Assembly (NCBI GenBank): GCA_964390635.1
Contig: CAYMIG010000005.1
Span: 148,320 to 212,319 of the forward strand
DNA length: 64,000 bases
DNA from: an uncultured Vampirovibrionales bacterium
GTDB lineage: Bacteria; Cyanobacteriota; Vampirovibrionia; Vampirovibrionales; Vampirovibrionaceae
Reading direction: 5' to 3'
The notes below the pieces were generated by a model. The model was not told the origin of the DNA. It was given only the letters and a program-made list of their open reading frames with translations, and made no database searches. The translations under genes and the position numbers were made by a program. Below are positions 8,737 through 42,985 of this stretch, piece by piece; position 1 is the stretch's first letter; every line of letters starts with the position of its first letter.

Positions 8737-9951
8737 CTAGGCCTGGAACTGCCGGAAGCTGGTGCCCAGGCGGGAAGAGCTGCGCAGGGCTTGCATGGTC
8801 AGCTGCGGGTTATAGCTGGAGAGATCGGCGGCGCGTTTGGCGGCCTGCTCTTTTTCAAAGGTGGACTTGTTCCAGAAGGCGTTGAACCACACCGGGAACC
8901 AGCCGATGGCGCCGATGACGATGGCAAATCCCAGCACGGCCACCGGCAGCAGGCGGCTCTTGCCGTAGCGGGAGACCACTTCGCGGAACTCGCCTTGCAG
9001 TTTTTCGGCGGCCTGGATGATGGCCTTGTCGCCGGTGGCTTTGGCGGCTTCCAGGCTTTGCTTGTGGATGGCCTCGCCGGCGTTGATATGGCCAATCAGG
9101 CGCTCGGAGAGCTCTTTCACCGTGTCGGCCTGGTGGTTTTGGTGGGCTTTCAGCAACTGGGGCACCAGTTCCTTAATTTGGGCAATCTCTTTCTGGATGG
9201 CTTCCTCGGCGGGGGTGCTGCCGGCGCGATCCCGCAGGGTTTTCACCGCGTTCAGCAGGCCCTTGCCGTTGCCTTCCCGCAGCAATTGCTGCACGGCATC
9301 GGCGTTGTCCAGGGCGTAATTTTTCATGCCGGAGAAGGTGTGCACGGCGTTCTTTTGCAGATCCACCAACTCGATGCCGGCCACCCGCTGCATCACCTTG
9401 TTCATCACCCGCAGCAGGGGCTTGAGCATGAACAGGAAGATGGTAATGGCGGTCATATCCCGGCGCAGCACGTCGCCCACTTCGCGGAAGTCGTTGCCGT
9501 TTTTCTTGCCGCGCTCATAGGCCCGGAACAGGCGGGGACCCACGGTAAACGGGTACAGCAGCAGGATCATGGCCCCGATGGGCGGCTCGGACACCAGAAA
9601 CTTCAGCTTGCCCAGGGCCACTTCCGGGAACTCGTGGTAATCGAAGGTGGCCAGCATCTTGGCAAAGCCGCCCACGTTTTTCACCACGGTGGCCATCAGC
9701 TTGTCCACGGCGCTGCCGTTGGCGTGGCCTTCCACAAACTTTTTCACCGAGGCATCGATTTTATCCGGGGCGTTAAACAGCTTGTCGGCCAGCTCGGCAA
9801 AGAACCGGGTGGCGGAGCTCGTCTGCACGGTGGCCTGGCTGGCCACGGCGGCGGTCTGGGTGCTGGCGCTGCCAAAGTGCACGGCGCCGGCCAGGGGGGC
9901 GGTTTTGGGCAGCGGGGCGGTGTGCCCGGCAAAATTCACGGAGCGCATCAT
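8737..9951 (-). CDS. hypothetical membrane protein, paralog family member A
   Basis: 404 aa; hydrophobic segments (IGAMILLLYPFTVGPRLFRAY; MTAITIFLFMLKPLL) and C-terminal TM (LLPVAVLGFAIVIGAIGWFPVWFNAFW); ends …SFRQFQA; 4-nt overlap with upstream gene. Confidence 0.6.
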   Translation of the reverse strand: MMRSVNFAGHTAPLPKTAPLAGAVHFGSASTQTAAVASQATVQTSSATRFFAELADKLFNAPDKIDASVKKFVEGHANGSAVDKLMATVVKNVGGFAKMLATFDYHEFPEVALGKLKFLVSEPPIGAMILLLYPFTVGPRLFRAYERGKKNGNDFREVGDVLRRDMTAITIFLFMLKPLLRVMNKVMQRVAGIELVDLQKNAVHTFSGMKNYALDNADAVQQLLREGNGKGLLNAVKTLRDRAGSTPAEEAIQKEIAQIKELVPQLLKAHQNHQADTVKELSERLIGHINAGEAIHKQSLEAAKATGDKAIIQAAEKLQGEFREVVSRYGKSRLLPVAVLGFAIVIGAIGWFPVWFNAFWNKSTFEKEQAAKRAADLSSYNPQLTMQALRSSSRLGTSFRQFQA

Positions 9952-11327
9952 GCCTGGCCTCCTTTCCGGGCGCCATAGCCCTGGAAGGTCTGGAAACTCT
10001 GCGGACGCAACAACGGCGCCTGCGTCAAGGGCAAAGCGCCGTAGCTGGAAGCGGATTGTGGCGGTTGTTGCTGGTGTCCGGCGGCGGTGCCAGCGCCATG
10101 GGCGGTGTTCGGGGCGGAGCCGGTATCTTTCAGCAGGCGGGTGGCATTGTAGGAATCGTGGTTTTGGGCCCAGAACGCCAGCTTGATGAGGTAGGCGCCG
10201 GCCAGCGCGGTGGTGCCCACGGCGATGAGGAACTTCTTGGCCGCGATCTTCTTGAACACGCCTTCGGCCACCTCGGCCAGCTTTTGGCCCACGCCACGCT
10301 CGGCCCAGACGGACTCGGCCAGGTCGCTCCAGCGTCGGATGTTCTTGAGCACGTGGCCAATGGGCTCGTGGGCGGCCTTGGAGGCATCGTCAAAGGCCAC
10401 GTGGATGTAGCCGGAGCGGTGCAAGGGGCGTTCCACGGCTTCGGTAAAACCGTTGCGGGCGTATTCGTAAGGCTTGAGTCGGTAATTCCGGTTGAAGCCG
10501 GTCAGCACTTCCTCGAACTGCTCGGCCAGCTGGCCCAGCAGCTTGTTCTTTTCCCGTCCGCTGGCGGTGTTGAATGTGGCATCCACGTAGCGGGCCGCCC
10601 AGTCGTCGATGTACTGGCGGTAGTTCTGCACGGCGTCGGTGCGCAGGTGCTCCGGCAGCATGTGCTTGGCATAGTCGGGATCCTGGAACATGCTGGCAAT
10701 GTATTTTTGCACGGCTTCCTGGTACTTGTTGGCGCCGATTTCGCCCACTTCCTGGCCCAACCCGGACTGGTTCAGGTGGGCCTGGAAACCGTGGGTCATT
10801 TCCTTCAGGTTGTGGTAGCCCAGCTCGGTGGCGGACTTGCCGAACATGCGGCGGGACACCGCGAAGATGATGGCCGGGATGGTCAGTACCCCGGGGCCGG
10901 TGGCAAACTCCCGCTTGGTCTCTTCGTTGAAGTTGACCCAGTTCAGGCCGCGGATGTTCTTGTGCAGCCAGATTCTGGCCTGATCCTTGAAGGGCAGGTT
11001 TTGCACCTCTTTATCGCCTGCGGTTTCGTACTTGATGCGACCGGTGGTCAGGGAGGTGCCCACCCGGGGCAGCCACATGGCGATGGCGTCCTGGGCCAGG
11101 AAGGCCCACACAAACACTTCGGTAATCTTTTGGAAGGTGGGAATGAGCTTTTCGGTGGCGCTTTGCAGGGCCTGGTTGCCGGCCCGCATGGCCACGTTGC
11201 CCAGGCCGCCGGAAAACCGGGGCGCCTGCGGATGCACCGGGAGGCTGGCGGCCACCGGGATACGGGGGGCGGCGCCTGCAAACTGGCGGGGGCGATGTGA
11301 CGCTGTTACATCCACTTGCGGAATCAT
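9948..11327 (-). CDS. hypothetical membrane protein, paralog family member B
   Basis: 459 aa; hydrophobic segments (VFVWAFLAQDAIAMWLP; GVLTIPAIIFAVSRRMFGK) and C-terminal TM (FLIAVGTTALAGAYLIKLAFWAQN); tail …LLRPQSFQTFQGYGARKGGQA. Confidence 0.6.
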   Translation of the reverse strand: MIPQVDVTASHRPRQFAGAAPRIPVAASLPVHPQAPRFSGGLGNVAMRAGNQALQSATEKLIPTFQKITEVFVWAFLAQDAIAMWLPRVGTSLTTGRIKYETAGDKEVQNLPFKDQARIWLHKNIRGLNWVNFNEETKREFATGPGVLTIPAIIFAVSRRMFGKSATELGYHNLKEMTHGFQAHLNQSGLGQEVGEIGANKYQEAVQKYIASMFQDPDYAKHMLPEHLRTDAVQNYRQYIDDWAARYVDATFNTASGREKNKLLGQLAEQFEEVLTGFNRNYRLKPYEYARNGFTEAVERPLHRSGYIHVAFDDASKAAHEPIGHVLKNIRRWSDLAESVWAERGVGQKLAEVAEGVFKKIAAKKFLIAVGTTALAGAYLIKLAFWAQNHDSYNATRLLKDTGSAPNTAHGAGTAAGHQQQPPQSASSYGALPLTQAPLLRPQSFQTFQGYGARKGGQA

Positions 11328-11678
11328 TCGGGTCTCAGTCTACTTTCGTCCGTCGGGCGTGAACCATTCGCTAGTTGGGGCTTTTCTATTAAAGCCGTGC
11401 ACTATAAAAGAACATCAACCGGTTCTGGTGCTAGCTTGTGAACAATTATTAAGGCCGGATTTGGGGCCCGCTCCCCAGGCGGGTTTGGGTCGCATGGGGC
11501 CAGGCAATGCCGCGTTCTGTTAGGTCGTTCGACACGGAAAAAATCGCTATATTATAGAAGCCAAATGGGTGGGCCCCGGCTTGTAAAGAATTCTCAATAA
11601 AATGACACCGGTTTTTTTGGAGGGGTTTAATTACTATGGATAGCTTCTCTTTATAGAGTAGGTTGGCTTTTTTCCTTT

Positions 11679-13112
11679 ATGCAACCCACGTTCCTCCCTC
11701 TACAGCAGCCTGTAATATCGCGCCGCGTGCAATTTGGCGGGCCTCTTGAAGCGCTCTCCAACGTCATTGGCGTGATTGACAGCAATCGCATCATTGAGTT
11801 GACCTCGACCGACATCATCGGCATGTGTTTCCCGAGGACGGCGATTGAGGCCAAAAAGCGCGGCCCGGATGCCGCCCGCGAAACCGCCATCCGCGAACTG
11901 AGCGGCCTGGTGGGCAACATGTTCCTGGTGGGCTGGTTCAGCAAGCTTTTCCTGAAGATGCTGGGCAACCGGGTGAACCGCTACAACCCGCATGGCATCC
12001 CCGCGTCGGCCTGGATGAACATCGAGAACATGCAGGCCTTTGGCAAGATTTACGAAGCCATCCTGCGCGATCCGGGAACCAAAAACGCCCAGCAGGCCCG
12101 GGCTAAATTCGTGCGCGCGGTGCTCTCAGGCCTGGAGTCCGCCGACAAGCACCTGGGCGCCAACGCCCTGCTGGATGCGGCCAAGGTGCTGGATGGCGAG
12201 GTGCGCGACAAGTACCTGCAAGAGATCCAGAAAAATGCCGCCGAGGGCCGCTTGCCCAAAGAAGTGCTGGAACGGCTGGCCGGCTTCTTCGATCTGCGGG
12301 ATTCCCGGGCCGCCGCCGATGTGGCGGGCACCGTCAACTTTAACCAGAAAGCCCGCGAGCTGGTTGCCGCCGCCGAAAAACACCACCAGCGCCAGGGGCT
12401 GGCCGGGGCCTTCGATGCGGCCCAGGCATTCGTCAAGACCCGCCTGCGCCTCAGCCTGGACGAGCTGCGCAGCGCTGAGGACGAATTTGCCCGGCTGGTG
12501 GATCGCGAGGCCCTGGGCGGCTACCTCAGCAAAGAAGTCAACCTGGTGCACAACGGCGAGGTGCTGACTGGCGGCAAGAGCCGCGATGCCATTCTGCGGC
12601 AGCTCAAGCACTTCCTGGAGCAGTACGTGGATCGTGCCGCCGAAGGCGCCGCCGGCAAGGGCTGGCAGGATGCGGTGCTCGAAAAACTGCTGGGCCAAAG
12701 CAAAAATACCGGCTTCCTGGCCCGGTTTGTCCCGCAAATTGACGACGGCCTGATGCAGGCTGCCCGCAAGTCCAAGTGGGCCTACACCTGGGTGCCGGTG
12801 CTGATGGCCATTTGCAGCTCCATTTCGGTGGCCTTCTACAACAACTGGCTGACCCGCAAGAAGATGGGCGGCAAGAACATTTCTCCCTACGAACTGGGCC
12901 TGGCCCAGAAGATGGGCAAGGCGGATGCCCTGATGGGTTCCCAGTCCGCCGTTCCAGCTGGCAAGCCGCAGGCCCAGACGGTGCCGGGCGTCTTTGTGAT
13001 GCCCACGGCGACCAATCCCGCTGCCCACGGCACGGGCCTGCGCCGTCCGCAGGGCGCGTTTGCCCAGTTCCAGAACGGACGTACCATGCATGCCGGAGGG
13101 CCTACCGCATGA
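11679..13112 (+). CDS. hypothetical membrane protein, paralog family member C
   Basis: 477 aa; LVGNMFLVGWFSKLFLKMLGNR mid segment, C-terminal TM (WAYTWVPVLMAICSSISVAFYNNWLTRKK), tail …LRRPQGAFAQFQNG…; start codon context weak, true start may lie downstream. Confidence 0.55.
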   Translation: MQPTFLPLQQPVISRRVQFGGPLEALSNVIGVIDSNRIIELTSTDIIGMCFPRTAIEAKKRGPDAARETAIRELSGLVGNMFLVGWFSKLFLKMLGNRVNRYNPHGIPASAWMNIENMQAFGKIYEAILRDPGTKNAQQARAKFVRAVLSGLESADKHLGANALLDAAKVLDGEVRDKYLQEIQKNAAEGRLPKEVLERLAGFFDLRDSRAAADVAGTVNFNQKARELVAAAEKHHQRQGLAGAFDAAQAFVKTRLRLSLDELRSAEDEFARLVDREALGGYLSKEVNLVHNGEVLTGGKSRDAILRQLKHFLEQYVDRAAEGAAGKGWQDAVLEKLLGQSKNTGFLARFVPQIDDGLMQAARKSKWAYTWVPVLMAICSSISVAFYNNWLTRKKMGGKNISPYELGLAQKMGKADALMGSQSAVPAGKPQAQTVPGVFVMPTATNPAAHGTGLRRPQGAFAQFQNGRTMHAGGPTA

Positions 13113-13906
13113 TGCCCAGCCTGTCCCATTCGCCATTCCAGCCCACCGCCCGTTTGGCGGCCCGTCCCGTGGCCCCCAAGTTTGGCGGCGCGGCCAGCAT
13201 GGCCTTCGATATGGTCGGCAAGGCCGCTTCCGAGATGGCCGGCAAAGCCGGGGCCGAAGCCCTGGGCAAAGCCAGCATGGCCAACTTCAAGGTGAGCGGC
13301 CTGATGCGTTTCCTGGACTTCCAGGAGCTGGCCTCGGCCACCATCAACCAGATCAAGGTCATCTACGGCTTGTGCATCATGTCCCGCATCCTGGCGGCCT
13401 CCACCCGCAGTAAAAACGAGGTGCGCGAGGTGGCCACCCGCGATTCCATGGGCTTCACCTTCTGGTTCTTCGCCACCCCGATGATCCAGCGCCTGTTCCT
13501 GCGCTTCTTGTCGCCCAAAGACCTGCGGCCCGGTCTTATTGTGGAAAAGGCCAAGCCGGCGGCCACCGGCGGCGGCTTGATGAACACGCTCAAGCGGCTT
13601 TCCTGGGAAATCAGCCCGCTGGCCCGCTGGGAGATTCCCAGCGCCCACCAGGTGAAGGATCGCATGGCCCACGCCTTGCAGGCGCTGGAAAAACAAGGCA
13701 TCAGCCACAGCGACGAAGCCTTCATCAAGATGGAAAAGCACTTCAAAAACCTCATCAAGTGGCGCAGCCTGGCTACCGGCCTGGGGTGGGCCATCACCAT
13801 CGCCCTGCTCGGCGTGGGCATCAACCTGTACAACATCTACATGACCCGTCGCAACCTGGAGCGCAGCATGAAAACCGGCGCGCCCATGCCCACCGCCGGC
13901 CACTAG
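13109..13906 (+). CDS. hypothetical membrane protein, paralog family member D (short)
   Basis: 265 aa from ATG overlapping stop of C (ATGA); FTFWFFATPMIQRLFLRFLSPK mid segment and C-terminal TM (LATGLGWAITIALLGVGINLYNIYMTRRN) resembling C. Confidence 0.55.
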   Translation: MMPSLSHSPFQPTARLAARPVAPKFGGAASMAFDMVGKAASEMAGKAGAEALGKASMANFKVSGLMRFLDFQELASATINQIKVIYGLCIMSRILAASTRSKNEVREVATRDSMGFTFWFFATPMIQRLFLRFLSPKDLRPGLIVEKAKPAATGGGLMNTLKRLSWEISPLARWEIPSAHQVKDRMAHALQALEKQGISHSDEAFIKMEKHFKNLIKWRSLATGLGWAITIALLGVGINLYNIYMTRRNLERSMKTGAPMPTAGH

Positions 13907-17562: not shown

Positions 17563-19566
17563 TCACCCTGCCCGATCGGCCATAAACGCCTGGCGCAGGG
17601 TAAAGATTTTCAGCCGGCTTTCTTTGCCGCGCACCTGCACGTCGCCCAGCTCCACCAGATCCGGGGCGCCGGCCATGGCCCGGGCGGTGTCCTCGCTGAT
17701 GATGAGCCGGGTCTGGAACTCCTTGGCCTGCTCCTGCAAGCGCACGCAGGTATTCACCGTATCGCCCACGGCGGTGTATTGCATGTTGGTGGCCGGGCCC
17801 AGCCAACCCACCACCGCCGGGCCGCTGTTGATGGAAATACCGATGTCCAGGTCGATGCCCTTGCTTTCCTTAAAGCGCCGGGCCAGCTCTCGCCCGGTGG
17901 CCAGGATGTCCCGGGCCGCATTCAGGGCCATGGCGCGGTGCTGCTCGCTGGGCAGGGGAGCCCCGAAAATAATCAGGATGCCGTCGGCCATGTACTTGTC
18001 CACCGTGCCGTAGTGGGCAAACACCACCTTGACCATCTCGGTGTAAAACTCGTTGAGCAGGTCAAACACCTCGGTGGGCTGCAACTGCTCCGATAAGGCC
18101 GTAAAGTTGCGCACGTCCACGAACATGGAAGTGACCTCCCGCTTCTGTCCGCCGGGCGTCAGCACGTCGGCCATCTTCTGGATTTCCAGGAACACGTCCG
18201 GGTCCACCAGCTGCATCAGGTTTTTTTCCATGGTGGCCAGCTGGCGCTCCTTGAAGAGGATGCGGAAGGTGCTGCCCGCCACGAAGGCCAGCACGATGAA
18301 CAGCTCCGGGGTCATCACGTCCAGCCACAGGCTTTTTTGGCTGAAGAACCAGTAGGCCAGCGAGAGATAAATAACCATGGTGCCCAGCGTGTACAGCAGG
18401 GTTTGCCCCAGGTGCTGGAAGCGCAGGCGCAGCAAAAGGGCCCCGGCCACCAGCACCAGCAGGATGAGGGCGTTCATCAGGCCGGGGGCCTTGCGTACCG
18501 ATTGCCCGTTCAGCAGGTTGTCGATGGCGGTGGCATGGATATCCGGCCCCAGGTGGCGCAGGGCCACCGGGGTGGGGCTGTAGTCGCGGTAAAACGTGGA
18601 GGAGGAACCGATGAGGGCGATTTTGCCTTTCAGCTCGGGCAGGTGGGCGTCTTTTTCCAGCACCCGCCACAGCGGGACGGCCAGGTGGCTGAGGCTGTAT
18701 TCGCCCTTGGGCACCGGCAGCAAGCGGTAATAGCGCATGTAAAAGGCGTCCCGCCCGCTCAGCGGAATCTGGATGCCCGTGGCGGGATCCCTTTCCGGGT
18801 AGAGCTTCAGCCGGGGGGCGGGCATGTCGTGGCGATCCACGTCCATGACCCAGGTGTCGCCCGGATGCGCGATGTTCAGGTATTCGTAAGCCGCCGCCAG
18901 CGACAGGGCCGGAAAAATGCCCGTCTGTCGGGCGCTGGCCTGCACCTTGTACACCGGCTTCAGCATGCGCACCGAGCCGTCGGCCTCCTGGCGGTTGCTG
19001 ACCACGCCCAGGTTCAGCCGGTAGTAATGGGGAATGTCCGTGTTCAGGTCGTTGCGCTCCCGGCCCCCGGTCTCGTTCATCACCAGCCCGGAAATTAGGT
19101 TGGAGAACTTTTTCATTTCCGTAAACACCGCCGCGTCCTCGGTCTCGTTGATGTTCAGGAAATGGCCGTCCAGTACCATCAGGGCGGGCTGCTGGGCGTT
19201 GAGGCGCTCGAAGATTTCCACGTAGGTCTTGCGGGGCCAGGGTACCGAGCCGAAGCGGGGTTTTAGCCGCTCGATGGACTCGTCGTCGATGAGCACCAGC
19301 ACCACCGGGCTGTCGGTGGCGGGCCGGGCCGACCAGCGCATAAAGTGATCGTAGAAGTAGGTTTCGGTCTGCTGGCCCAGTCGCCACAGCCCAACCACTG
19401 CCGCCAGGGCCAGCAGGGTGGGCAAAAGCCAGTTCAGCAGGTTTTTCAGCACGGGGTTTGCTTGTCCCTTATGCACGCTGTTTCTATCATAGCGGGGATT
19501 GCCCAGGGTGGCCATGTCAGGCAAGCCACGTCCCTCCAAATGCATGAGGGCCCCGGCATGCAGCAT
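17563..19566 (-). CDS. CHASE2-sensor class III adenylate/guanylate cyclase
   Basis: 667 aa; N-terminal TM, periplasmic CHASE2-like region, 3 TM helices, C-terminal cyclase domain (FVDVRNFTALSE…ADGILIIFGAP…TAVGDTVNTCVRLQ). Confidence 0.8.
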   Translation of the reverse strand: MLHAGALMHLEGRGLPDMATLGNPRYDRNSVHKGQANPVLKNLLNWLLPTLLALAAVVGLWRLGQQTETYFYDHFMRWSARPATDSPVVLVLIDDESIERLKPRFGSVPWPRKTYVEIFERLNAQQPALMVLDGHFLNINETEDAAVFTEMKKFSNLISGLVMNETGGRERNDLNTDIPHYYRLNLGVVSNRQEADGSVRMLKPVYKVQASARQTGIFPALSLAAAYEYLNIAHPGDTWVMDVDRHDMPAPRLKLYPERDPATGIQIPLSGRDAFYMRYYRLLPVPKGEYSLSHLAVPLWRVLEKDAHLPELKGKIALIGSSSTFYRDYSPTPVALRHLGPDIHATAIDNLLNGQSVRKAPGLMNALILLVLVAGALLLRLRFQHLGQTLLYTLGTMVIYLSLAYWFFSQKSLWLDVMTPELFIVLAFVAGSTFRILFKERQLATMEKNLMQLVDPDVFLEIQKMADVLTPGGQKREVTSMFVDVRNFTALSEQLQPTEVFDLLNEFYTEMVKVVFAHYGTVDKYMADGILIIFGAPLPSEQHRAMALNAARDILATGRELARRFKESKGIDLDIGISINSGPAVVGWLGPATNMQYTAVGDTVNTCVRLQEQAKEFQTRLIISEDTARAMAGAPDLVELGDVQVRGKESRLKIFTLRQAFMADRAG

Positions 19567-19699
19567 CGCCCCGCCCGGGCAGGGATTCAGGAATTCCGGG
19601 CATGGCAGGCAATTCTTCCCATGTAATTGTTTTTATTTAAATAGCATTCTTATGATTCGGTTTTGGGAAGTGTTTATCTAGGGAAAGAGGAGAATCCTG

Positions 19700-20005
19700 A
19701 TGGGAGATCTGAGTTTTAATCCGGCAGGGCGTCCAGAACTACTCAGCTTTGGCAACGTGGGCCGGAATACCAACACGGGTGCCCCCGCTTCCGGGTACGT
19801 GCCGCTAGCGGCGGGTACGCTGGGCTCGGGTGACAGCCTGGAGTTGACCAGCCTGGTGGTTCCGCAAACCGGCACCACCCCGGAAAACACCGATGTGCGC
19901 CTGGTGGTGAACAACGCGGTGGCCAACGATCCGCAGGGCCTGACCCTGAATCCCAGCGTGCGGGCCCTGTTGCTGGCGGCACCTGAGCAATTTCCGGCGG
20001 CCTAA
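19700..20005 (+). CDS. small Gly/Asn/Thr-rich hypothetical protein (MGDLSFN… N-terminus)
   Basis: 101 aa; AGAGGAG Shine-Dalgarno 8 nt upstream of ATG; sits in AT-rich islet; N-terminus resembles that of the 26822 acidic protein. Confidence 0.45.
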   Translation: MGDLSFNPAGRPELLSFGNVGRNTNTGAPASGYVPLAAGTLGSGDSLELTSLVVPQTGTTPENTDVRLVVNNAVANDPQGLTLNPSVRALLLAAPEQFPAA

Positions 20006-20060
20006 TCCGTCAAGCCTAAGGCAACCTTAAAACACGCCCGTCGTGGCGGTGATACTTGTC

Positions 20061-20094
20061 GTGGAGTCTGTCTGTTTTGCGTGGAGACTGTCTG
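20061..20094. repeat. direct repeat GTGGAG(T/A)CTGTCTG x2, 20 bp centre-to-centre, candidate regulator binding site
   Basis: gtggagtctgtctg at 20061-20074 and gtggagactgtctg at 20081-20094, in intergenic DNA upstream of small-gene tandem. Confidence 0.5.
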
Positions 20095-20263
20095 AAAACG
20101 TACTGAGTGCGGGCATGATTTTTAAACTGTAAAGATAATTAAACAAACAAACGATCGGGTAACATCAAAACGCACATTCCTGTTTTTATGCAATCAAGAG
20201 AGTCAAGGGCAGTAATTGGCACTCTTGTTCAGAGAGAAAAGCAGTAACAGGAGAAGAGAGGCA

Positions 20264-20524
20264 ATGGTTGATTTCAACAGAATTAATTTAAACGGGGTCA
20301 ATATAACCCCCAACGTGGCAGGAATTCGTTCTGCGGCGGCGGCGTCCACCTCGGGCGGCGGCAACGTGAACCGCACCGATTCCTTTGAGCGGTCCAACCT
20401 GTTTGCCGGCGAAGGGCTGAGCCATACCGTGGATTTTGGCGCCATTGCCAACATGTCGATGGCCGATGCCGCCAAGGCGTTGCCCGGGTCTTTCCAGGGC
20501 CTCAAGTTCCTGGCCAGCATCTAA
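20264..20524 (+). CDS. small Gly/Asn-rich hypothetical protein, tandem paralog 1 (MVDFNRINLNGV…FLASI)
   Basis: 86 aa from ATG at 20264 (GGAGAAGAGAGG upstream); conserved N- and C-terminal blocks shared with the 20756 ORF. Confidence 0.6.
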   Translation: MVDFNRINLNGVNITPNVAGIRSAAAASTSGGGNVNRTDSFERSNLFAGEGLSHTVDFGAIANMSMADAAKALPGSFQGLKFLASI

Positions 20525-20755
20525 CCCCAAGCACGCAACCGACTGGGTTGAACGCGGACAAGGCAAATTCCAAGTTTTTATTCCTGAACTGCTTTTAAAC
20601 AAAAGCGATCGTGTTTTGCGGTCGCTTTTGTTGCTTAGTGTAACGATCGCGGCGCCGGGGGCTGTCGGACAGGCATGTGCATGCTTTAGATTGTTTTTAT
20701 ATATATAGAGAGAGAAGCTAGATTTCGGTGCGTGCATCGAAAGGAGAGAAGCGCA

Positions 20756-21025
20756 ATGGTTGATTTTCGCAATGTCAACTTGAACGGGGTCGGTGGCATC
20801 AACCCGGCCAGTAGCGCGCCAGGCTTAGGGCAGGCAGGGTCTGCACCCGGTTTCAACCCCCTGAACCAGGGGGGCGTCGATGCCTTTACCCCCAGCAACG
20901 CCTTGTTTGCCGGCGGCGGGGGGCATGGCGTGGACTTCAACGCCATCGCCAACATGTCCCTGGAGGATTGTGCCAAGGCCCTTCCCAATTCCTTTGCGGG
21001 ATTGCAGTTTCTGGCCAACCTCTAA
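20756..21025 (+). CDS. small Gly/Asn-rich hypothetical protein, tandem paralog 2 (MVDFRNVNLNGV…FLANL)
   Basis: 89 aa from ATG at 20756 (GGAGAGAAG upstream); C-terminal VDFNAIANMSLEDCAKALPNSFAGLQFLANL vs VDFGAIANMSMADAAKALPGSFQGLKFLASI in paralog 1. Confidence 0.6.
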   Translation: MVDFRNVNLNGVGGINPASSAPGLGQAGSAPGFNPLNQGGVDAFTPSNALFAGGGGHGVDFNAIANMSLEDCAKALPNSFAGLQFLANL

Positions 21026-21045
21026 ACCAGCTTTCAACGCATCAG

Positions 21046-21078
21046 GCACCCGCCCCACCGGCGGGTGCTTTGTTTTTT
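21046..21078 (+). terminator. intrinsic terminator after small-gene tandem
   Basis: gcacccgcc-ccacc-ggcgggtgc stem-loop followed by tttgttttt. Confidence 0.6.
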
Positions 21079-21278
21079 CAGGGCAACATTTTTAAGAAAA
21101 TATTAAAAAATGTAACTCGGGGCCGGCCAGTGCCTATAATACTTACTATGGTTAGGAGTTGTACTCCTGGCTTACACACCCTAATTTCTCTAACTGAATT
21201 CTTTCACAAGAAGAAACCGCAGAAGCTGAACACTCCTGCGGCTTTTATTTTTTGTGGTTTTTTTGCCGGCGGGTGGGC

Positions 21279-23198
21279 CTACTTCAGGTCTTTGTCGCTG
21301 AAGGGCTTCACCGTCTCGGTCTTTTTGGCGTCCGGCACCAGGGTGCCGCTGGCCACCTGGTTCACCAGGTGATAGAGGTCTTTCACCCCAAAGCCGGTGG
21401 CCCATTCCCAGTTGCCGCGGGCCGGGTCTTTTTCGTCGTACTCGGCGCCGGCCATGTCGTAGTGCACCCAGGGCGTCTTGGGATTGGCCAGGAACTCCCG
21501 GATGAAGGCCGCCCCCTGGGCCGAGTGCTGCAGCATGTAATCCCGATCCTGGGCCAGCGGGCCCAGCACGCCGTAGTACTTGGCGTCGTCCCGGCCCACG
21601 GAGTTGTACACATCGGCAAAGGATTCCCCGCCTTCCTTGGCGGCATCCCGGGTGACCCAGCGGTGGTGGGCCTGGGTCAGCGGAAGCACTTCCGTGGTGC
21701 GGCCCAGGTTTTCGGCCTCAATGCCGTTGGCGGCTTTCAGCAGGTCGCGGTTGTTGCCGCTGATGGCCACCGCGTTCTGGGCCCCCACGCCGCGCACCTT
21801 GCCGCCGGTGAGGGTGGCGATATCGGCCACCACATCCGGCTTGTACACGTCCATGCCGTAGTGGATGGCATCCCCCAGCACCAGGCGCCCTTCGGCGTCG
21901 GTGTTGGAGATGGCGACCCGCTTGCCGTTGCGGGCGACCACCACCCGGTTTTCCAGGGTGGCATTGTGGCCAATGCGGTTTTCGGTGAGGGGCACCAGGC
22001 CCACCACGCGCACGCCTTGCAGTTTCAGGTCGTTGATGGCTTTCAGGGCACCGATGACCGCCGCCCCGCCCGCCATATCGCCGCGCATATTGTGGATGTA
22101 CTCGCTCGATTTGAGGTTGGTGCCGCCGGTATCGAACACAATGCCCTTGCCCACCAGCAGCACGGTCTTGCCGGTGGCCGGGTTCCAGCCGGGCGGGGTG
22201 TAGACCATCTCCACCATGCGCGGATCGGCGTCCGGGAAGCCGGGCGCGTTGCCATCACCCACCGAGAGCATCATGTGCATGCCCTGGTTGCGCAGCCATT
22301 GCTTGTCGCGTACCTGTACCCGCAGGGTGGTACCGTTGTCCATGGCCTGGGCGGCATCGGCAATCAGGCGGGTGCGTTCCGGGTTGGCCGGGCTGTCCAC
22401 CAGATGGCGGGTCAGGTTGGTAGCCTCGCCCAGGGCCTTGCCTTCGGCCAGGGCACGGGCAGCGGCGCCGGCTTGCAGGCCGCGCAGCCCTTTCTTGTTC
22501 AGCACCACCTGGTTCACGGTCTTGGCGGGGACGCCGGCCCGGAACTGGTTGTAGTTGTACCCGTTCAGCACGGCCATTTCCGCCAGATCCCGAATGAGAT
22601 CCTCTTTTTTCACCCCGTCGGGCAGGCGCTCGGGCAGTTCCACGCTGACCGCGGTGAAGCCGGCGGGCACTTTATCCAGCTGCTTTTTAAAGGCGGCCCG
22701 GATGGCGGCGGCGTTTCGGGTGGCCGCTTTCTTGCGGGCGGTTTTTTTCTCTTCGGCGGTGGCTGCCGGGGGGAAGCTGGGCTTGCTGGCCTTGAACACC
22801 CCGAACAGGTTGCCGTTGGGGTCAATCCCGGTTTCGGGGCTGATGGCGTTGGCCAGGGCCTGGGCCGAGGAGGCCAACGCCTGGCGCACCACATCCAGCG
22901 GGCCGGGCATGGCGCCATACACCATGGTGGGGGTGGTGCTCCACTGGGTCAAAATCTCGCTGGCTTGCTGCAGGCCGCGTTCCAGCAGGCTGGGCAGCTC
23001 GTCCTTGGAGGTCAGCACAATGCGGGCGGTCTTTTCGCCGGCGGCATCATGCAGCCGGGTGGGGCTGAAGGCATCGCTGGTCAGCTGTACGGCCACCGGA
23101 TGCTGCACGTTGGCGGGTGCGGCGCCGAACTTCGGAAACGGCAGCACCTGGCCGAACCGGACGGCGGGAAAATGTGAACGGATGGAATCCAGTACCAT
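21279..23198 (-). CDS. pepA: leucyl aminopeptidase (M17 family) with extended N-terminal region
   Basis: 639 aa; M17 catalytic motifs (VGKGIVFDTGG, NTDAEGRLVL). Confidence 0.85.
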   Translation of the reverse strand: MVLDSIRSHFPAVRFGQVLPFPKFGAAPANVQHPVAVQLTSDAFSPTRLHDAAGEKTARIVLTSKDELPSLLERGLQQASEILTQWSTTPTMVYGAMPGPLDVVRQALASSAQALANAISPETGIDPNGNLFGVFKASKPSFPPAATAEEKKTARKKAATRNAAAIRAAFKKQLDKVPAGFTAVSVELPERLPDGVKKEDLIRDLAEMAVLNGYNYNQFRAGVPAKTVNQVVLNKKGLRGLQAGAAARALAEGKALGEATNLTRHLVDSPANPERTRLIADAAQAMDNGTTLRVQVRDKQWLRNQGMHMMLSVGDGNAPGFPDADPRMVEMVYTPPGWNPATGKTVLLVGKGIVFDTGGTNLKSSEYIHNMRGDMAGGAAVIGALKAINDLKLQGVRVVGLVPLTENRIGHNATLENRVVVARNGKRVAISNTDAEGRLVLGDAIHYGMDVYKPDVVADIATLTGGKVRGVGAQNAVAISGNNRDLLKAANGIEAENLGRTTEVLPLTQAHHRWVTRDAAKEGGESFADVYNSVGRDDAKYYGVLGPLAQDRDYMLQHSAQGAAFIREFLANPKTPWVHYDMAGAEYDEKDPARGNWEWATGFGVKDLYHLVNQVASGTLVPDAKKTETVKPFSDKDLK

Positions 23199-23350: not shown

Positions 23351-24013
23351 ATGCAAGCCATTCGCCCTAACCCTTTTTCGTCTTTACCGATCCACCGTCC
23401 TGCTTTTCAGGGCTGGTTCGGTGGGCTGGCCCGCCGCATGAGAAGTCAAACGGGTGATTCAGATACACTTGACCTACAGATCAAGGTGGGTCATCCTATT
23501 CCGTGCCCTCCGCCCGATGACATTGCCGCAAGAATCAATCTGGGTGAAACTGTCGAGGTGCATCCCAGTGAACTCGCTGCTGAAGTCAAGTTGGGGGATA
23601 CCACGGATGAGCGTATTGAAGCGAACCGGTTCATTGATCAGTGGATGCCGGAAATCGAAAAGACCCAGCGCTTTACCCGGTTTTCCCGTCAGCAGGTTAT
23701 CCAGGCCGTGGGCGAATATACCGGCTTGCGCATTCTGGATGTAGGTAACGTGACTGACTTGGAGCTGTCCTGGGTATTGAAACGGTTAGCCCTCAACCCG
23801 GAAACCGTGCCGCTCGAAACGAACACGGTAGTCATTGGGCATGGCCTTGGTCAAGGACGGCATTGGAGTTTTGTGGGTAGTGGGCAAAAGGTGGCAGATT
23901 ATATTGCCCAGCATGTGCCGCAAGGTGAAAAAGTTTGGGCGGTGGTTTGCGATGCGGATCGTGAACGATATTTCCATTTGGCCGAGGGAAAATTGGTGAC
24001 TTCAGGCACTTAG
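23351..24013 (+). CDS. hypothetical protein
   Basis: 220 aa ORF with coding-like GC3 bias, no recognisable motifs. Confidence 0.5.
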   Translation: MQAIRPNPFSSLPIHRPAFQGWFGGLARRMRSQTGDSDTLDLQIKVGHPIPCPPPDDIAARINLGETVEVHPSELAAEVKLGDTTDERIEANRFIDQWMPEIEKTQRFTRFSRQQVIQAVGEYTGLRILDVGNVTDLELSWVLKRLALNPETVPLETNTVVIGHGLGQGRHWSFVGSGQKVADYIAQHVPQGEKVWAVVCDADRERYFHLAEGKLVTSGT

Positions 24014-26651: not shown

Positions 26652-26821
26652 CGCCGCTTTTTTGCTGCCGGCCTTCTCTGGCCGAGCGGGGGTTTTGGCG
26701 GGCGCAGGCAATTTTACAGTACTGATTGTTTTTATTAGTTTAATTGGAGTACTTGTCCGGGTGAAGTGGGAGGTTTTGACCCTTGGCTTTGCCATGGACG
26801 GGAAAAGGATGGAGTGTAGAG

Positions 26822-29026
26822 ATGGGAGATTTCACGTTTAACAGCCAGGCGGCCATCCGGGCGGGCAACAATGGCAATGTGCCCATGGGGCAACCGTTTG
26901 CCCAGCCTTTCGGCGCGGATGACGATTATATCGACCTGACCGGCGCCACCAACGTGGAAGGCGACGTGATCAACGTGGAAGGGGATTTGATTATCGTGCA
27001 GAACGGCGGCGGGGGCTATCCGGCTGCGGGTGGGTACGGTGGCTATGCCGGGGGCGGGTATGCCTACCCGGCTGCCGGGGGAGGATACGGATTTCCCGCA
27101 TACGGCGGCGGCGGTGGCGGCGGCTTTATGATGCCCCAGCCCTCCAGCCATATGATGGGCGTACTGAACGACATTTATGCCATGATGGCCCCGGTTCTGG
27201 CCGGTTTGACCGAATACATGGCCCAGTTGCAGCAGGTGATTGCCGCGCAGAAAGCGGGCCAAACCAGTGGTAGTGGCAATCCCGGCGACAGCGGCGGCGA
27301 TCATGGCGATGCCGGGGATCATGGGGATCACGGCGATCATGGCGATGCCGGGGATCATGGGGATCACGGCGATCATGGCTCCCAGCCCACCTACCATACC
27401 AGCGGGGCCGACAACGAGACGGCCATCCAGGTGCTGGAAGAGCTACGCCGGCGCACCCGCAGCGATGCCGGCGGCAACTGGAGCGATGCGGAACTGCGGG
27501 ATGCCGTGCGTGACATTGCCCGCGAGCTGGATATTGACGAGGATGAGGTGGACGGGATCATCGACACCATCCGTGACAACCACGAGGCCCTCTCCGCCCT
27601 GGACGGCCATCCGGGCGACCTGAACGCGGATGAGATTGATAGCATCGTGGAACTGCTGGATCGGGGCTTCTCGCTGGAGCAGATCATTGAGGAAGGCAAG
27701 CATCTGGATGAAGGCCAGAGCACGACCCTGCTGGAGAACAACCGGCCCTTGCACTACGAGCACCAGGAGGAGAAGGACACCGTCGTTGATGCCCTGGAGT
27801 TTGCCATCAGCCGTCGCAACGTCGAGGATTTTGCCGGCGATGACGGCAAGTACAGCGCCGATGAGCTGAACGAGCTGGCCGACGAGCTGGAGTCGCAAGG
27901 CAAGCAAGAGGCCGCCGATAAGCTGCGCTACATTGCCGACCACCGCGACGAGTTCACCATGCTGGACGGCCATGACGGCGACCTGAACCGCGATGAGCTG
28001 CGCAACATCCTGGAGCTGGTGGATCAGGGTTTCACCCTCAGCTACATCGCCAAAGAGGGCCAACTGCTGAAGGAAGCCGGCGGCAACCGCAGCACCAACC
28101 TGGCCGCCATCGGCGAGGTGGGCTTCCCCGGTGCCGAGGGTAGCGGTCGCTCCGAGCATACCGACGAGGCGGATGATGCCGATCACGCCGACGAGGTGGA
28201 TGATGCCGACGACGTCGATCATGGCGACGACGTGGAGGAGACCGAAGAAACGGAAGAGACCGAAGAACCGGAAGATTCCGATCATGCCGACGAGGCCGAT
28301 GACAGCGAGGCCGAGGTGGCCGATCGGGCCATGGCCTTCCTGCTGGATCACGTGGATGACATCCCCTCGGATGGCTCCTACAATGACCAGGATCTGCGCC
28401 GGGCGGCCAACCAGGCGCGCCGGGACGGCATGGATGCGGAGGCCGAGTTTATCGAGCAGCTGGCCGATGAAAAAGACGCCCTGACCTACGTGACCGATGG
28501 TGAATCTGGCTTGACCGGAGACCTGAAGGACTTCGAGCTTCAGGATCTGCGCCGCCTGCTGGCCGATGGCTGGACCCTGGATCAGCTGGTGGAGGCTGGG
28601 GAGCAGGGCATTGCCCTGGGCGACGTGGAAACATCCGCCTTCCATACCGATCCCGAGCGCCAGGATCTGGAGGAACAGGCCATCCAATACCTGATCGACA
28701 ACGTGGACACCTATCCGTCGGATGGCTCCTACAACGGCGACGATTTCGACAAGGCCATCGAGGATGCGCCCCCGGAACTGATTCCGGTGCTGCGGCAAAT
28801 GAAGGAGCAGCGCGGCAACCTGACCTATATGGACGGCCAGTCGGGCGACCTGAACGAAAACGAGCTGCGGCAATTGCTGGAGCTGGTGCAGCATGGCTAC
28901 AAGCTGGACTTCTTGTCCGCCGCCGGTGAGCGTAACTATTGGGACGGCGTTGGTACCGGGTGGTTTGTCGGCGATTTGGGCGAAAAGCTGCTGGGTTACG
29001 GCGGCCACCAAACCGAGGCGTCCTGA
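26822..29026 (+). CDS. large highly acidic repeat protein (Gly/Tyr-rich block, (DHG)n, (ETE)n, four ~45-aa DGxxGDLNxDEL repeats), N-terminus MGDFTFN…
   Basis: 734 aa from ATG 26822 (GGAG 7 nt upstream); very high Asp/Glu content; internal repeats visible by eye. Confidence 0.7.
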   Translation: MGDFTFNSQAAIRAGNNGNVPMGQPFAQPFGADDDYIDLTGATNVEGDVINVEGDLIIVQNGGGGYPAAGGYGGYAGGGYAYPAAGGGYGFPAYGGGGGGGFMMPQPSSHMMGVLNDIYAMMAPVLAGLTEYMAQLQQVIAAQKAGQTSGSGNPGDSGGDHGDAGDHGDHGDHGDAGDHGDHGDHGSQPTYHTSGADNETAIQVLEELRRRTRSDAGGNWSDAELRDAVRDIARELDIDEDEVDGIIDTIRDNHEALSALDGHPGDLNADEIDSIVELLDRGFSLEQIIEEGKHLDEGQSTTLLENNRPLHYEHQEEKDTVVDALEFAISRRNVEDFAGDDGKYSADELNELADELESQGKQEAADKLRYIADHRDEFTMLDGHDGDLNRDELRNILELVDQGFTLSYIAKEGQLLKEAGGNRSTNLAAIGEVGFPGAEGSGRSEHTDEADDADHADEVDDADDVDHGDDVEETEETEETEEPEDSDHADEADDSEAEVADRAMAFLLDHVDDIPSDGSYNDQDLRRAANQARRDGMDAEAEFIEQLADEKDALTYVTDGESGLTGDLKDFELQDLRRLLADGWTLDQLVEAGEQGIALGDVETSAFHTDPERQDLEEQAIQYLIDNVDTYPSDGSYNGDDFDKAIEDAPPELIPVLRQMKEQRGNLTYMDGQSGDLNENELRQLLELVQHGYKLDFLSAAGERNYWDGVGTGWFVGDLGEKLLGYGGHQTEAS
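27296..27379 (+). repeat. 36-bp in-frame tandem repeat (2.3 copies) encoding GDHGDAGDHGDH
   Basis: ggcgatcatggcgatgccggggatcatggggatcac repeated exactly twice plus 12-nt partial third copy. Confidence 0.8.
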
Positions 29027-42502: not shown

Positions 42503-42985
42503 ATGAATTTTGATACCGCGGCCAAGATTGGGCTGGGTTTGCTGAAGCACCACGACGAAATCGGCAAGTTGCTGGGTGGCGCCGGTAAGCTGCTGGGCGG
42601 GGAGGGGGCCGGCAAGCTGGCCGACCGCTTTGCCGGGGCCCTGGCCAAAAAGCTGGACAAGCTGGAAGCCGATCCGCCGCCGGGGGGCGTGAATACCTTG
42701 CAGGCCCTGCGCAATTTCGCCTACTTCGATGCCGACCGCAACGGGCGGCTCACGCGGGATGAACTCACCGCCGGCCTGCAAAAGCTGGAGTCGGCTGGGC
42801 TTGCTTCCCCGCAAAACCAGCAGTTGCATTCCCTGGGCAGCCAGTTGCTGGCCAAATACGACCAGGCCGCCGCGCTGGACGGCGACAACCAGACGGTCAG
42901 CTACCTCGATCTGGGTACCCTGGCCGCCAAGGACGGGCGGGCCATGTTCCTGTCCGATGCCGACTGGGGTAAGCTCTCCGGCTAG
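42503..42985 (+). CDS. small EF-hand calcium-binding protein
   Basis: 160 aa; canonical 12-residue EF loop DADRNGRLTRDE; GKLLGG repeats at N-terminus. Confidence 0.65.
   Translation: MNFDTAAKIGLGLLKHHDEIGKLLGGAGKLLGGEGAGKLADRFAGALAKKLDKLEADPPPGGVNTLQALRNFAYFDADRNGRLTRDELTAGLQKLESAGLASPQNQQLHSLGSQLLAKYDQAAALDGDNQTVSYLDLGTLAAKDGRAMFLSDADWGKLSG

Follow-up and report, generated by a model that had tools for sequence, protein, structure and literature searches.

A locus in the genome of an uncultured Vampirovibrionales bacterium raises the question of whether three small open reading frames (ORFs) within one intergenic islet are genuine genes and, if so, what ties them to one another and to the gene for a large acidic protein downstream. 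We analyzed a stretch of 64,000 nucleotides (nt) of contig CAYMIG010000005.1 (assembly GCA_964390635.1, positions 148,320 to 212,319), hereafter the window, in which the islet is bounded by the start, at 19566, of a minus-strand adenylate/guanylate cyclase gene with a CHASE2 sensor domain (17563-19566) and by the stop, at 21279, of a minus-strand M17 aminopeptidase gene (21279-23198). Our results showed that the ORFs are under constraint, that two of them are paralogs of narrow distribution, that a conserved upstream box is shared by all three and by the acidic protein gene, and that the islet contains independent units with their own terminators. With moderate confidence, we read the locus as part of a lineage-specific regulon of separately transcribed genes whose small protein products may bind partners or self-assemble. 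The four genes concerned are as follows.

19700..20005, plus strand: ORF1, 101 amino acids (aa), isoelectric point (pI) 4.3; rich in Gly, Ala, Leu, Pro, Asn and Thr
20264..20524, plus strand: ORF2, 86 aa, pI 6.5; paralog A of the VDFN family
20756..21025, plus strand: ORF3, 89 aa, pI 4.35; paralog B of the VDFN family
26822..29026, plus strand: acidic protein gene, 734 aa, pI 4.05; ~7 kb from the islet

The coordinates of the three ORFs had been given in a preliminary description made from the letters of the sequence. They were borne out, and independent gene calls of public assemblies place identical starts, with products of 101, 86 and 89 aa. The purine-rich Shine-Dalgarno (SD) sites that had been noted for each ORF are also present (GAGGAG at 19687-19692, AGGAG at 20249-20253 and AAGGAG at 20741-20746). 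The islet as a whole had been called AT-rich, which holds for its spacers (GC content of 0.46-0.48 vs 0.61-0.67 in the flanks) but not for the ORFs themselves, which are 58-62% GC.

Two related genomes were available for comparison, L001 (Logan SRR21707651) and L004 (ENA ERZ19026152); L002 and L003 belong to the window's own organism. The order cyclase-ORF1-ORF2-ORF3 is kept in both related genomes, and in L004, whose contig reaches further than that of L001, the aminopeptidase gene lies downstream as well. Between the three genomes, 51-68% of synonymous sites differ. The proportion of nonsynonymous differences (pN) was below that of synonymous differences (pS) in every comparison and for all three ORFs, with pN of 0.19-0.37 vs pS of 0.51-0.67 for ORF2 and ORF3, and pN of 0.40-0.48 vs pS of 0.63-0.68 for ORF1, which is fast-evolving (34-45% identity between orthologs). 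The corresponding ratios of substitution rates (dN/dS), which are only rough because synonymous sites are near saturation (dS ~1), were 0.22-0.50 for ORF2 and 0.24-0.29 for ORF3, a range similar to that of the adjacent cyclase gene (0.26-0.33), and 0.31-0.52 for ORF1.

These comparisons bear on the possibility that the frames are open merely by chance and that the conservation of the islet is purely that of regulatory DNA or a non-coding RNA. The intergenic blocks are indeed conserved at least as well as the ORFs, and ORF1 diverges rapidly, as such a possibility would have it. However, the frames are open in all three genomes and their length changes are frame-preserving; pN is below pS throughout, with a ratio for ORF2 and ORF3 that matches the neighboring enzyme gene; GC content at third codon positions (GC3) exceeds that at second positions, as in the other genes of this genome; each ORF has its SD site at the correct distance; and a more distant fourth family member, P0007, retains the C-terminal motif of ORF2 and ORF3. 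Because of these comparative data, spurious ORFs are excluded in our judgment, a chance origin being extremely improbable. Thus, ORF1, ORF2 and ORF3 are real genes under constraint.

ORF2 and ORF3 had been described as paralogs with conserved termini, and alignment confirmed both points: the proteins are 52% identical over their full length (E 2e-22) and share an N-terminal MVDFxxxNLNG segment and a C-terminal VDFNAIANMS...GLxFLA block. Both paralogs are present in each of the three genomes carrying the locus. The ORF2 orthologs of the window and L001 are 73% identical, while identity to the L004 ortholog is 53-54%, about that of the ORF2-ORF3 pair within a genome. Since ORF2 orthologs are closer to each other than ORF2 is to ORF3 within a genome, the duplication is older than at least the split between the window and L001. 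The proposed small-protein family with conserved termini is kept in related genomes; a total lack of such homologs, which the preliminary description had named as evidence against it, is therefore not what we found.

The family is nevertheless very small. A word-indexed search of 5.8 billion clusters, using ORF3 as the query and then a seven-sequence profile, yielded seven proteins. Six are the paralog pairs of the three genomes, and the seventh, 91 aa long, is encoded on a 1-kb JGI contig. P0007 is without the N-terminal motif and has kept the C-terminal one. When 1.84 billion representatives were scanned exhaustively with a hidden Markov model (HMM), two repeat-protein artefacts were the only additions, and scans of GTDB species genomes, JGI metagenome contigs and IMG/VR viral contigs with the family alignment found no relative. 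Two targeted scans of 185,579 GTDB species genomes likewise revealed no close relative of the window organism, whose lineage is therefore missing from that collection; the scan based on the cyclase gave only an unrelated archaeal match. None of the seven members matches Pfam, even at E <= 10, nor does the family match NCBIfam, PHROG or PADLOC, and its profile has no sequence match in the PDB below E 0.5. ORF1 is also without a family match. A phage or defense-system origin was rejected on the lack of PHROG and PADLOC matches. The distribution is thus narrow, within one poorly sampled bacterial lineage. By calling the family new we mean that it matches no known family or system, and we claim no new mechanism.

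What connects the four genes was found upstream of their starts, where each has the same short box. Three of the four are listed here; the fourth, CTGTTTTTAT at 20180-20189, is 75 nt before the ATG of ORF2.

19608..19636, plus strand: ORF1 box, GGCAATT-N12-TTGTTTTTAT, ending 64 nt before the ATG; same sequence in both L001 and L004
20691..20700, plus strand: ORF3 box, TTGTTTTTAT, 56 nt before the ATG
26707..26735, plus strand: acidic-gene box, GGCAATT-N12-TTGTTTTTAT, 87 nt before the ATG; also in the L004 ortholog

The ORF1 box lies in the 133-bp region between the divergent starts of ORF1 and the CHASE2-cyclase gene, and a 19-nt block at ORF3, ATTGTTTTTATATATATAG, is 89% identical to the block at ORF1. 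In the window, TGTTTTTAT has 5 matches vs 0.24 expected, a number reached in 0 of 100 shuffles, and allowing one mismatch in TTGTTTTTAT added just one extra site. Four of the five sites are on the plus strand, which is the coding strand, 56-87 nt upstream of the starts of ORF1, ORF2, ORF3 and the acidic protein gene. The fifth, at 79-87, falls within the coding sequence of nrdJ on the minus strand, in its 5' part, and was set aside as probably a chance match. The box was found at all three of the genes present in L001, and the four sites in 18 kb of L004 are all at the four orthologous genes, so that the box is invariant in 11 of 11 instances across the three genomes. Furthermore, at ORF1 and the acidic protein gene, GGCAATT(C/T)T stands exactly 10 nt upstream of TTGTTTTTAT in both genomes that can be compared. 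A metagenome scan with the 29-nt composite box gave 120 chance matches in AT-rich genomes and no relatives.

As a DNA sequence, the box resembles a TGn element followed by a weak -10 hexamer, with TGT+TTTTAT fitting at 4 of 6 positions. Readings as a sigma-28, sigma-54, extracytoplasmic function (ECF) sigma, CRP or NtcA site were considered by eye, and none fits. We infer that the box represents one common promoter or operator class and that the four box genes are probably co-expressed. Because the invariant 10-nt box ties together four lineage-specific genes, the regulon should be easy to delimit in a full genome.

A connection between ORF1 and the acidic protein gene had been suggested on other grounds, namely the likeness of their N-terminal sequences, MGDLSFN and MGDFTFN, and the atgggagat with which both genes begin. 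This likeness is present in the window and is too good for chance among its ~60 genes, but the orthologs do not keep it: ORF1 begins with MVGELGFNP (L001) or MGNGSAGFNP (L004), and the acidic protein of L004 begins with MDNSPLGGQQVRNPFGVTNFNAG (MDNSPLGG...TNFNAG). All that persists of it is a Phe-Asn pair, which lies within the first 7-22 residues in every ortholog of ORF1, ORF2, ORF3 and the acidic protein. Homology to the N-terminal 160 residues of the acidic protein was rejected for ORF1 by profile comparison and for ORF2 and ORF3 by hhalign. The link itself is real, but it lies mainly in the shared upstream block GGCAATTYT-N10-TTGTTTTTAT rather than in an N-terminal peptide. Since the box is conserved in all genomes despite saturated synonymous sites, the link to the acidic gene is best read as a shared promoter or operator.

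The islet also contains terminators and other conserved elements.

20048..20095, plus strand: conserved block 3' of ORF1, GGTGATACTTGTC, then repeated (GAG)WCTGTCTGA / CTGTCTGA units
20122..20189, plus strand: AT-rich region 5' of ORF2, TGTAAA..TAAT/AATAAACAA and (G/T)ACATCAAAA; its terminal part is the ORF2 box
20598..20632, plus strand: ORF2 intrinsic terminator, 14-nt arms and 7-nt loop, then TTTTGTTGCTT
21044..21080, plus strand: ORF3 intrinsic terminator, 11 pairs, 8 of them GC, with T-run

The strong terminator that had been reported 3' of ORF3 was confirmed as a hairpin of 11 pairs at 21044-21070 followed by a T-run. A hairpin with a T-run is found at the position of the ORF2 terminator in L001 and L004 too, with different stem sequences. 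The block at 20048-20095 and the blocks TAAATAAACAA and ACATCAAAA within 20122-20179 are invariant across three genomes in which synonymous sites are saturated. Support for an RNA structure in the 20048-20095 block is weak (-6 kcal/mol); it is a candidate for a transcript 3' end, an operator or an RNA element. The best explanation of the islet is that it consists of three separately transcribed small-protein genes and one small RNA (sRNA)-like gene, the latter described further below.

The ORF2/ORF3 family alignment has a tripartite layout, with a near-invariant N-terminal MVDFN(R)INLNG(V), a variable middle of Gly, Ala, Ser, Asn and Pro, and a conserved C-terminal block, (S/H)xVDFNAIANMSLxDAxxAxPxSFxGLQFLA(N/S)(L/I/V). 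Each protein therefore has two copies of VDFNxI, the first at residue 2 and the second near residue 59, a feature absent from the preliminary description. In an AlphaFold2 (AF2) model built from the seven-sequence alignment (mean predicted local distance difference test score, pLDDT, of 57), residues 1-55 were of low confidence and without regular structure, and helices were placed at 61-65, 69-75 and 80-88 in an arrangement that is not a helical hairpin. A Foldseek search with this model found nothing (E >= 9). The model suggests that the ~9-kDa products are largely disordered, with a C-terminal three-helix module of ~30 residues at whose start the second VDFNxI stands.

The same conservation pattern argues against one of the functions that had been proposed, that of a precursor-peptide family. 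Small size, tandem paralogs and a conserved N-terminus are what one would expect of precursors of bacteriocins or of ribosomally synthesized and post-translationally modified peptides (RiPPs), and in these respects ORF2 and ORF3 resemble the small paralogous ORFs of Nif11/NHLP-type arrays. However, conservation here is inverted: both ends are conserved, the C-terminal 30 aa best of all, and the middle is variable, the reverse of what a conserved leader and a variable core would give. Moreover, in all three genomes the ORFs are without an adjoining modifying enzyme, C39 or other protease, ATP-binding cassette (ABC) exporter or other transporter; no match to Nif11, NHLP or any further leader family was obtained, and there is no conserved double-glycine site. 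The precursor reading is disfavored because of this conservation pattern and the gene neighborhood, and we give it very little credence. Classical secretion, also suggested previously, is not supported either, as the proteins have no hydrophobic segment and no signal peptide; the maximal Kyte-Doolittle hydropathy over 15 aa is 0.86-1.14 and is reached at the C-terminus.

ORF1 has conserved blocks of its own, GFNP near the N-terminus and GTTPxNTDV..IV.NAP.QDP further on. Its homology to ORF2 and ORF3 is marginal at most (hhalign probability 2.5%, E 0.019), and an HMM-versus-shuffle comparison gave p ~0.01-0.02 in one direction and was not significant in the other.

The 5' ends of two of the genes are unusual in codon content. 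GC3 of the first 12 codons is 0.25 in ORF1 and 0.42 in ORF2, vs ~0.8 for the remainder, and codons 2-13 of ORF2 are the second most AT-rich among 58 genes. The first 9-10 codons of ORF2 are near-identical DNA in the three genomes and include the rare codons TTA, AGA, ATT and AAT. Because these 5' codons are AT-rich, rare and conserved as DNA, the N-terminal conservation is likely to reflect in part a constraint on the RNA or on translation initiation. Such a constraint would favor codons for Phe, Asn, Ile and Asp and likely explains part of the N-terminal resemblance among the proteins.

In the reading that we favor, ORF1, ORF2, ORF3 and the acidic protein gene would form a small regulon under the control of a single sigma or transcription factor specific to the lineage. 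The ORF2 and ORF3 products would be neither enzymes nor peptide precursors; they may instead work through their conserved terminal VDFNxI motifs as partner-binding or self-assembling modules, the variable Gly/Ala/Ser/Asn linker connecting the N-terminal motif and the C-terminal module. Efficient initiation of translation could then be what has been selected for in the AT-rich, rare-codon 5' ends of ORF1 and ORF2. That both paralogs were retained suggests that they form a heteromer or divide the labor between them. A known parallel is offered by orphan disordered adaptors of the CP12 type, which are small intrinsically disordered proteins acting via short terminal motifs. ORF2 and ORF3 are like them in size, in having conserved end motifs with a variable low-complexity linker, in narrow range and in their independent, apparently strong expression signals, but they have no homology to any such family.

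Several points weigh against this reading. TGT+TTTTAT is a poor sigma-70 extended -10 element with T at the A(-11) position, the box was not called by a consensus promoter scan, and no recognizable -35 element accompanies it. Instead of belonging to a promoter, the box could be an element of the 5' untranslated region (UTR) or a binding site. The regulon is defined from 64 kb and short syntenic contigs. As for the proteins, no partner was pinpointed for the products of ORF1, ORF2 and ORF3, ORF1 is unproven as a third paralog of ORF2 and ORF3, and disorder is only suggested because the AF2 model has a pLDDT of 57 from only seven sequences. Our confidence is accordingly good for the anatomy of the locus and low for the mode of action that we ascribe to the ORF2 and ORF3 products. 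This orphan small-protein family from a barely sampled lineage is a useful, tractable small puzzle rather than a surprise.

The most attractive rival draws only on broad likeness and on the genes being in one genome. It would make the small proteins, and perhaps the acidic protein, substrates or regulators of a type III export apparatus of the flagellar type whose genes lie 15 kb from the islet. They might, for example, be FlgM-like anti-sigma factors or small secreted filament or harpin-like subunits, with the N-terminal M-(V/G)-D-F / FN forming part of an export signal. The window does encode fliN/sctQ-like, fliO, fliP, fliQ and fliR genes at 532-4573, ORF2 and ORF3 are small proteins without a Sec signal and with a predicted disordered N-terminus and C-terminal helical module, and the persistent Phe-Asn pair described above would fit a common signal. 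FlgM itself is a protein of ~85-100 aa without a signal peptide, with a disordered N-terminal half and short functional helices in its C-terminal part, found in organisms with a flagellar export gate. ORF2 and ORF3 share its size, its lack of a signal peptide and the presence of an export gate in the genome, and they may resemble it in architecture, to judge by the low-confidence AF2 model with its unstructured residues 1-55 and C-terminal helices. They differ from it in having no sequence or profile similarity, no flagellar neighborhood (flgN/flgK/fliA), no sigma-28 promoter, a strongly conserved N-terminal 12-mer and two retained paralogs.

The other type III comparison is with Hrp pilins and small harpins (HrpE, HrpA, Hpa1) of plant-pathogen type III secretion systems (T3SS). 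The likeness lies in small size, a high Gly content, an acidic character, cysteines that are few or absent, the lack of a Sec signal and a tripartite layout, which in those proteins comprises an N-terminal signal, a variable middle and a conserved C-terminal assembly domain. In contrast to these proteins, ORF2 and ORF3 have no detectable similarity to the family and lie outside a T3SS cluster, and the export genes here score best as flagellar, with FliP above its NCBIfam cutoff and FliO present. No match of the ORF2/ORF3 family to T3SS needle or pilin proteins (SctF, PF09392; Hrp pilins) was found in Pfam or the PDB.

More generally, type III export is weakened by the lack of any match, even at E <= 10, to FlgM (PF04316), needle or pilin models or any PDB chain. 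The genes are outside the flagellar cluster, with the cyclase, lysA, cdaA and aminopeptidase genes as neighbors, and inspection of the upstream sequences showed no sigma-28-type promoter, TAAA-N15-GCCGATAA. Export signals are normally not conserved in sequence, yet this N-terminus is near-invariant, and P0007 does without it. We therefore consider a role in type III export unlikely. A more specific version, in which the four genes with the TTGTTTTTAT box encode dedicated cargo or building blocks of the flagellar-type apparatus, a lineage-specific sigma factor reads the box, and M-x-D-F / F-N is a sequence-specific export tag, appears rather improbable. If export through this apparatus were true, the N-terminal motif would be an unusual sequence-defined export tag and would mark a new class of type III substrates.

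The export genes themselves form an isolated minus-strand operon (532-4573; fliN/sctQ-like-fliO-fliP-fliQ-fliR) with no adjoining flhB or flhA. Its 482-514-aa C-ring protein scores best against SctQ/SepQ_C of injectisomes (non-flagellar T3SS), and FliP, FliQ and FliR score best as flagellar. Between this operon and the islet lie genes for ribosomal protein S20, a heptosyltransferase, a tetratricopeptide repeat (TPR) protein, four unknown proteins, CdaA, LysA and a hydrolase. Four consecutive genes at 8737-13906, which encode proteins of 404, 459, 477 and 265 aa, have no Pfam or NCBIfam match and are conserved in the same order in all three related genomes.

In the acidic protein, a low-complexity region rich in Gly and Tyr is combined with (H/A)GD (HGD) repeats and with acidic repeats of ~100 aa, about four in number, that carry the motifs DGSYN...DL and LDGHxGDLNxxEL. 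The full protein is a singleton cluster at 90% identity, and no homolog, not even the protein itself, was returned when its C-terminal 237 aa, the last two repeats, served as the query. Its only similarities are EF-hand-like signals below threshold (a myosin light chain at E 0.32 and EF-hand_6 at E 0.033), and EF-hand proteins recur among its weak Foldseek matches (best E 1.7).

These signals lend something to the hypothesis that ORF2 and ORF3 are degenerate EF-hand-derived modules that take part, together with the acidic EF-hand-like repeat protein, in some structure or process involving calcium. The only match outside the family in the exhaustive profile search is a eukaryote-like protein with an EF-hand_7 score of 23.3 bits (cutoff 30), whose repeats contain both EVDFNGI and GHGLDFETVANMS, and G-x-VDFNAIANM resembles the G-x-IDFxEFxxMM exit of the EF loop. 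However, all of these signals are below significance, and no Pfam EF-hand match was found for any of the seven members at E <= 10. In addition, inspection of the alignment showed that loop positions 1, 3, 5 and 12 are without acidic ligands, and hhalign finds ORF2 and ORF3 unrelated to the N-terminal region of the acidic protein. We regard this hypothesis as a weak lead and improbable.

Finally, the sRNA-like gene follows the ORF3 terminator directly, and two features were defined for it.

21085..21140, plus strand: AT-rich promoter-like region of the sRNA-like gene, TTAAGAAAATATTAA...ATGTAAC-N18-TATAAT; blocks invariant in three genomes
21147..21262, plus strand: sRNA-like transcript of ~115 nt, with inferred ends, a 5' hairpin (GGUUAGGAG/CUCCUGGC) and a terminator; z = -3.1

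It contains a 33-nt invariant single-stranded stretch, ACACACCCUAAUUUCUCUAACUGAAUUCUUUCA, and has a counterpart at 10962-11098 of L004; its terminator also serves the convergent aminopeptidase gene. There was no Rfam match at gathering thresholds, and relaxed settings gave only chance-level matches. When its pyrimidine-rich stretch was compared with purine-rich 5' UTRs, the four box genes ranked 2, 4, 5 and 8 of 58 by duplex energy. Regulation of these 5' UTRs by the sRNA was rejected as a composition effect: shuffled seeds were equal in 29 of 500 trials, and the duplexes are fragmented. Since shuffled seeds do as well, no regulatory link is claimed. The strongest predicted pairing among the 58 genes (-25.2 kcal/mol) is with the 5' UTR of a plus-strand gene at 42503-42985, which encodes a 160-aa protein with a weak EF-hand_6 match.

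Beyond the aminopeptidase gene, a plus-strand 220-aa ORF at 23351-24013 has a GC3 of 0.54, vs ~0.83 in its neighbors, and no family match. L004 is without it at that position and has instead a 249-aa minus-strand gene between the sRNA and aminopeptidase genes. At the beginning of the window, the minus-strand gene nrdJ, for a B12-dependent (class II) ribonucleotide reductase, has its start at 112 (window 1-531; L126 9235-10481). Its non-coding leader of ~420 nt (113-531) has no Rfam match, not even to a cobalamin riboswitch. Elsewhere in the window, a ribosomal protein gene group has the order rpsM-rpsK-rpsD-rpoA-rplQ-truA-rplM-rpsI. Among PDB chains, its RpoA scores best against that of entry 8SYI, a cyanobacterial RNA polymerase, by a small margin over a Bacillus enzyme; the gene order and this similarity suggest that the organism is of a Terrabacteria lineage resembling cyanobacteria or Firmicutes. 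The valyl-tRNA synthetase (ValRS) is a singleton cluster at 90% identity.

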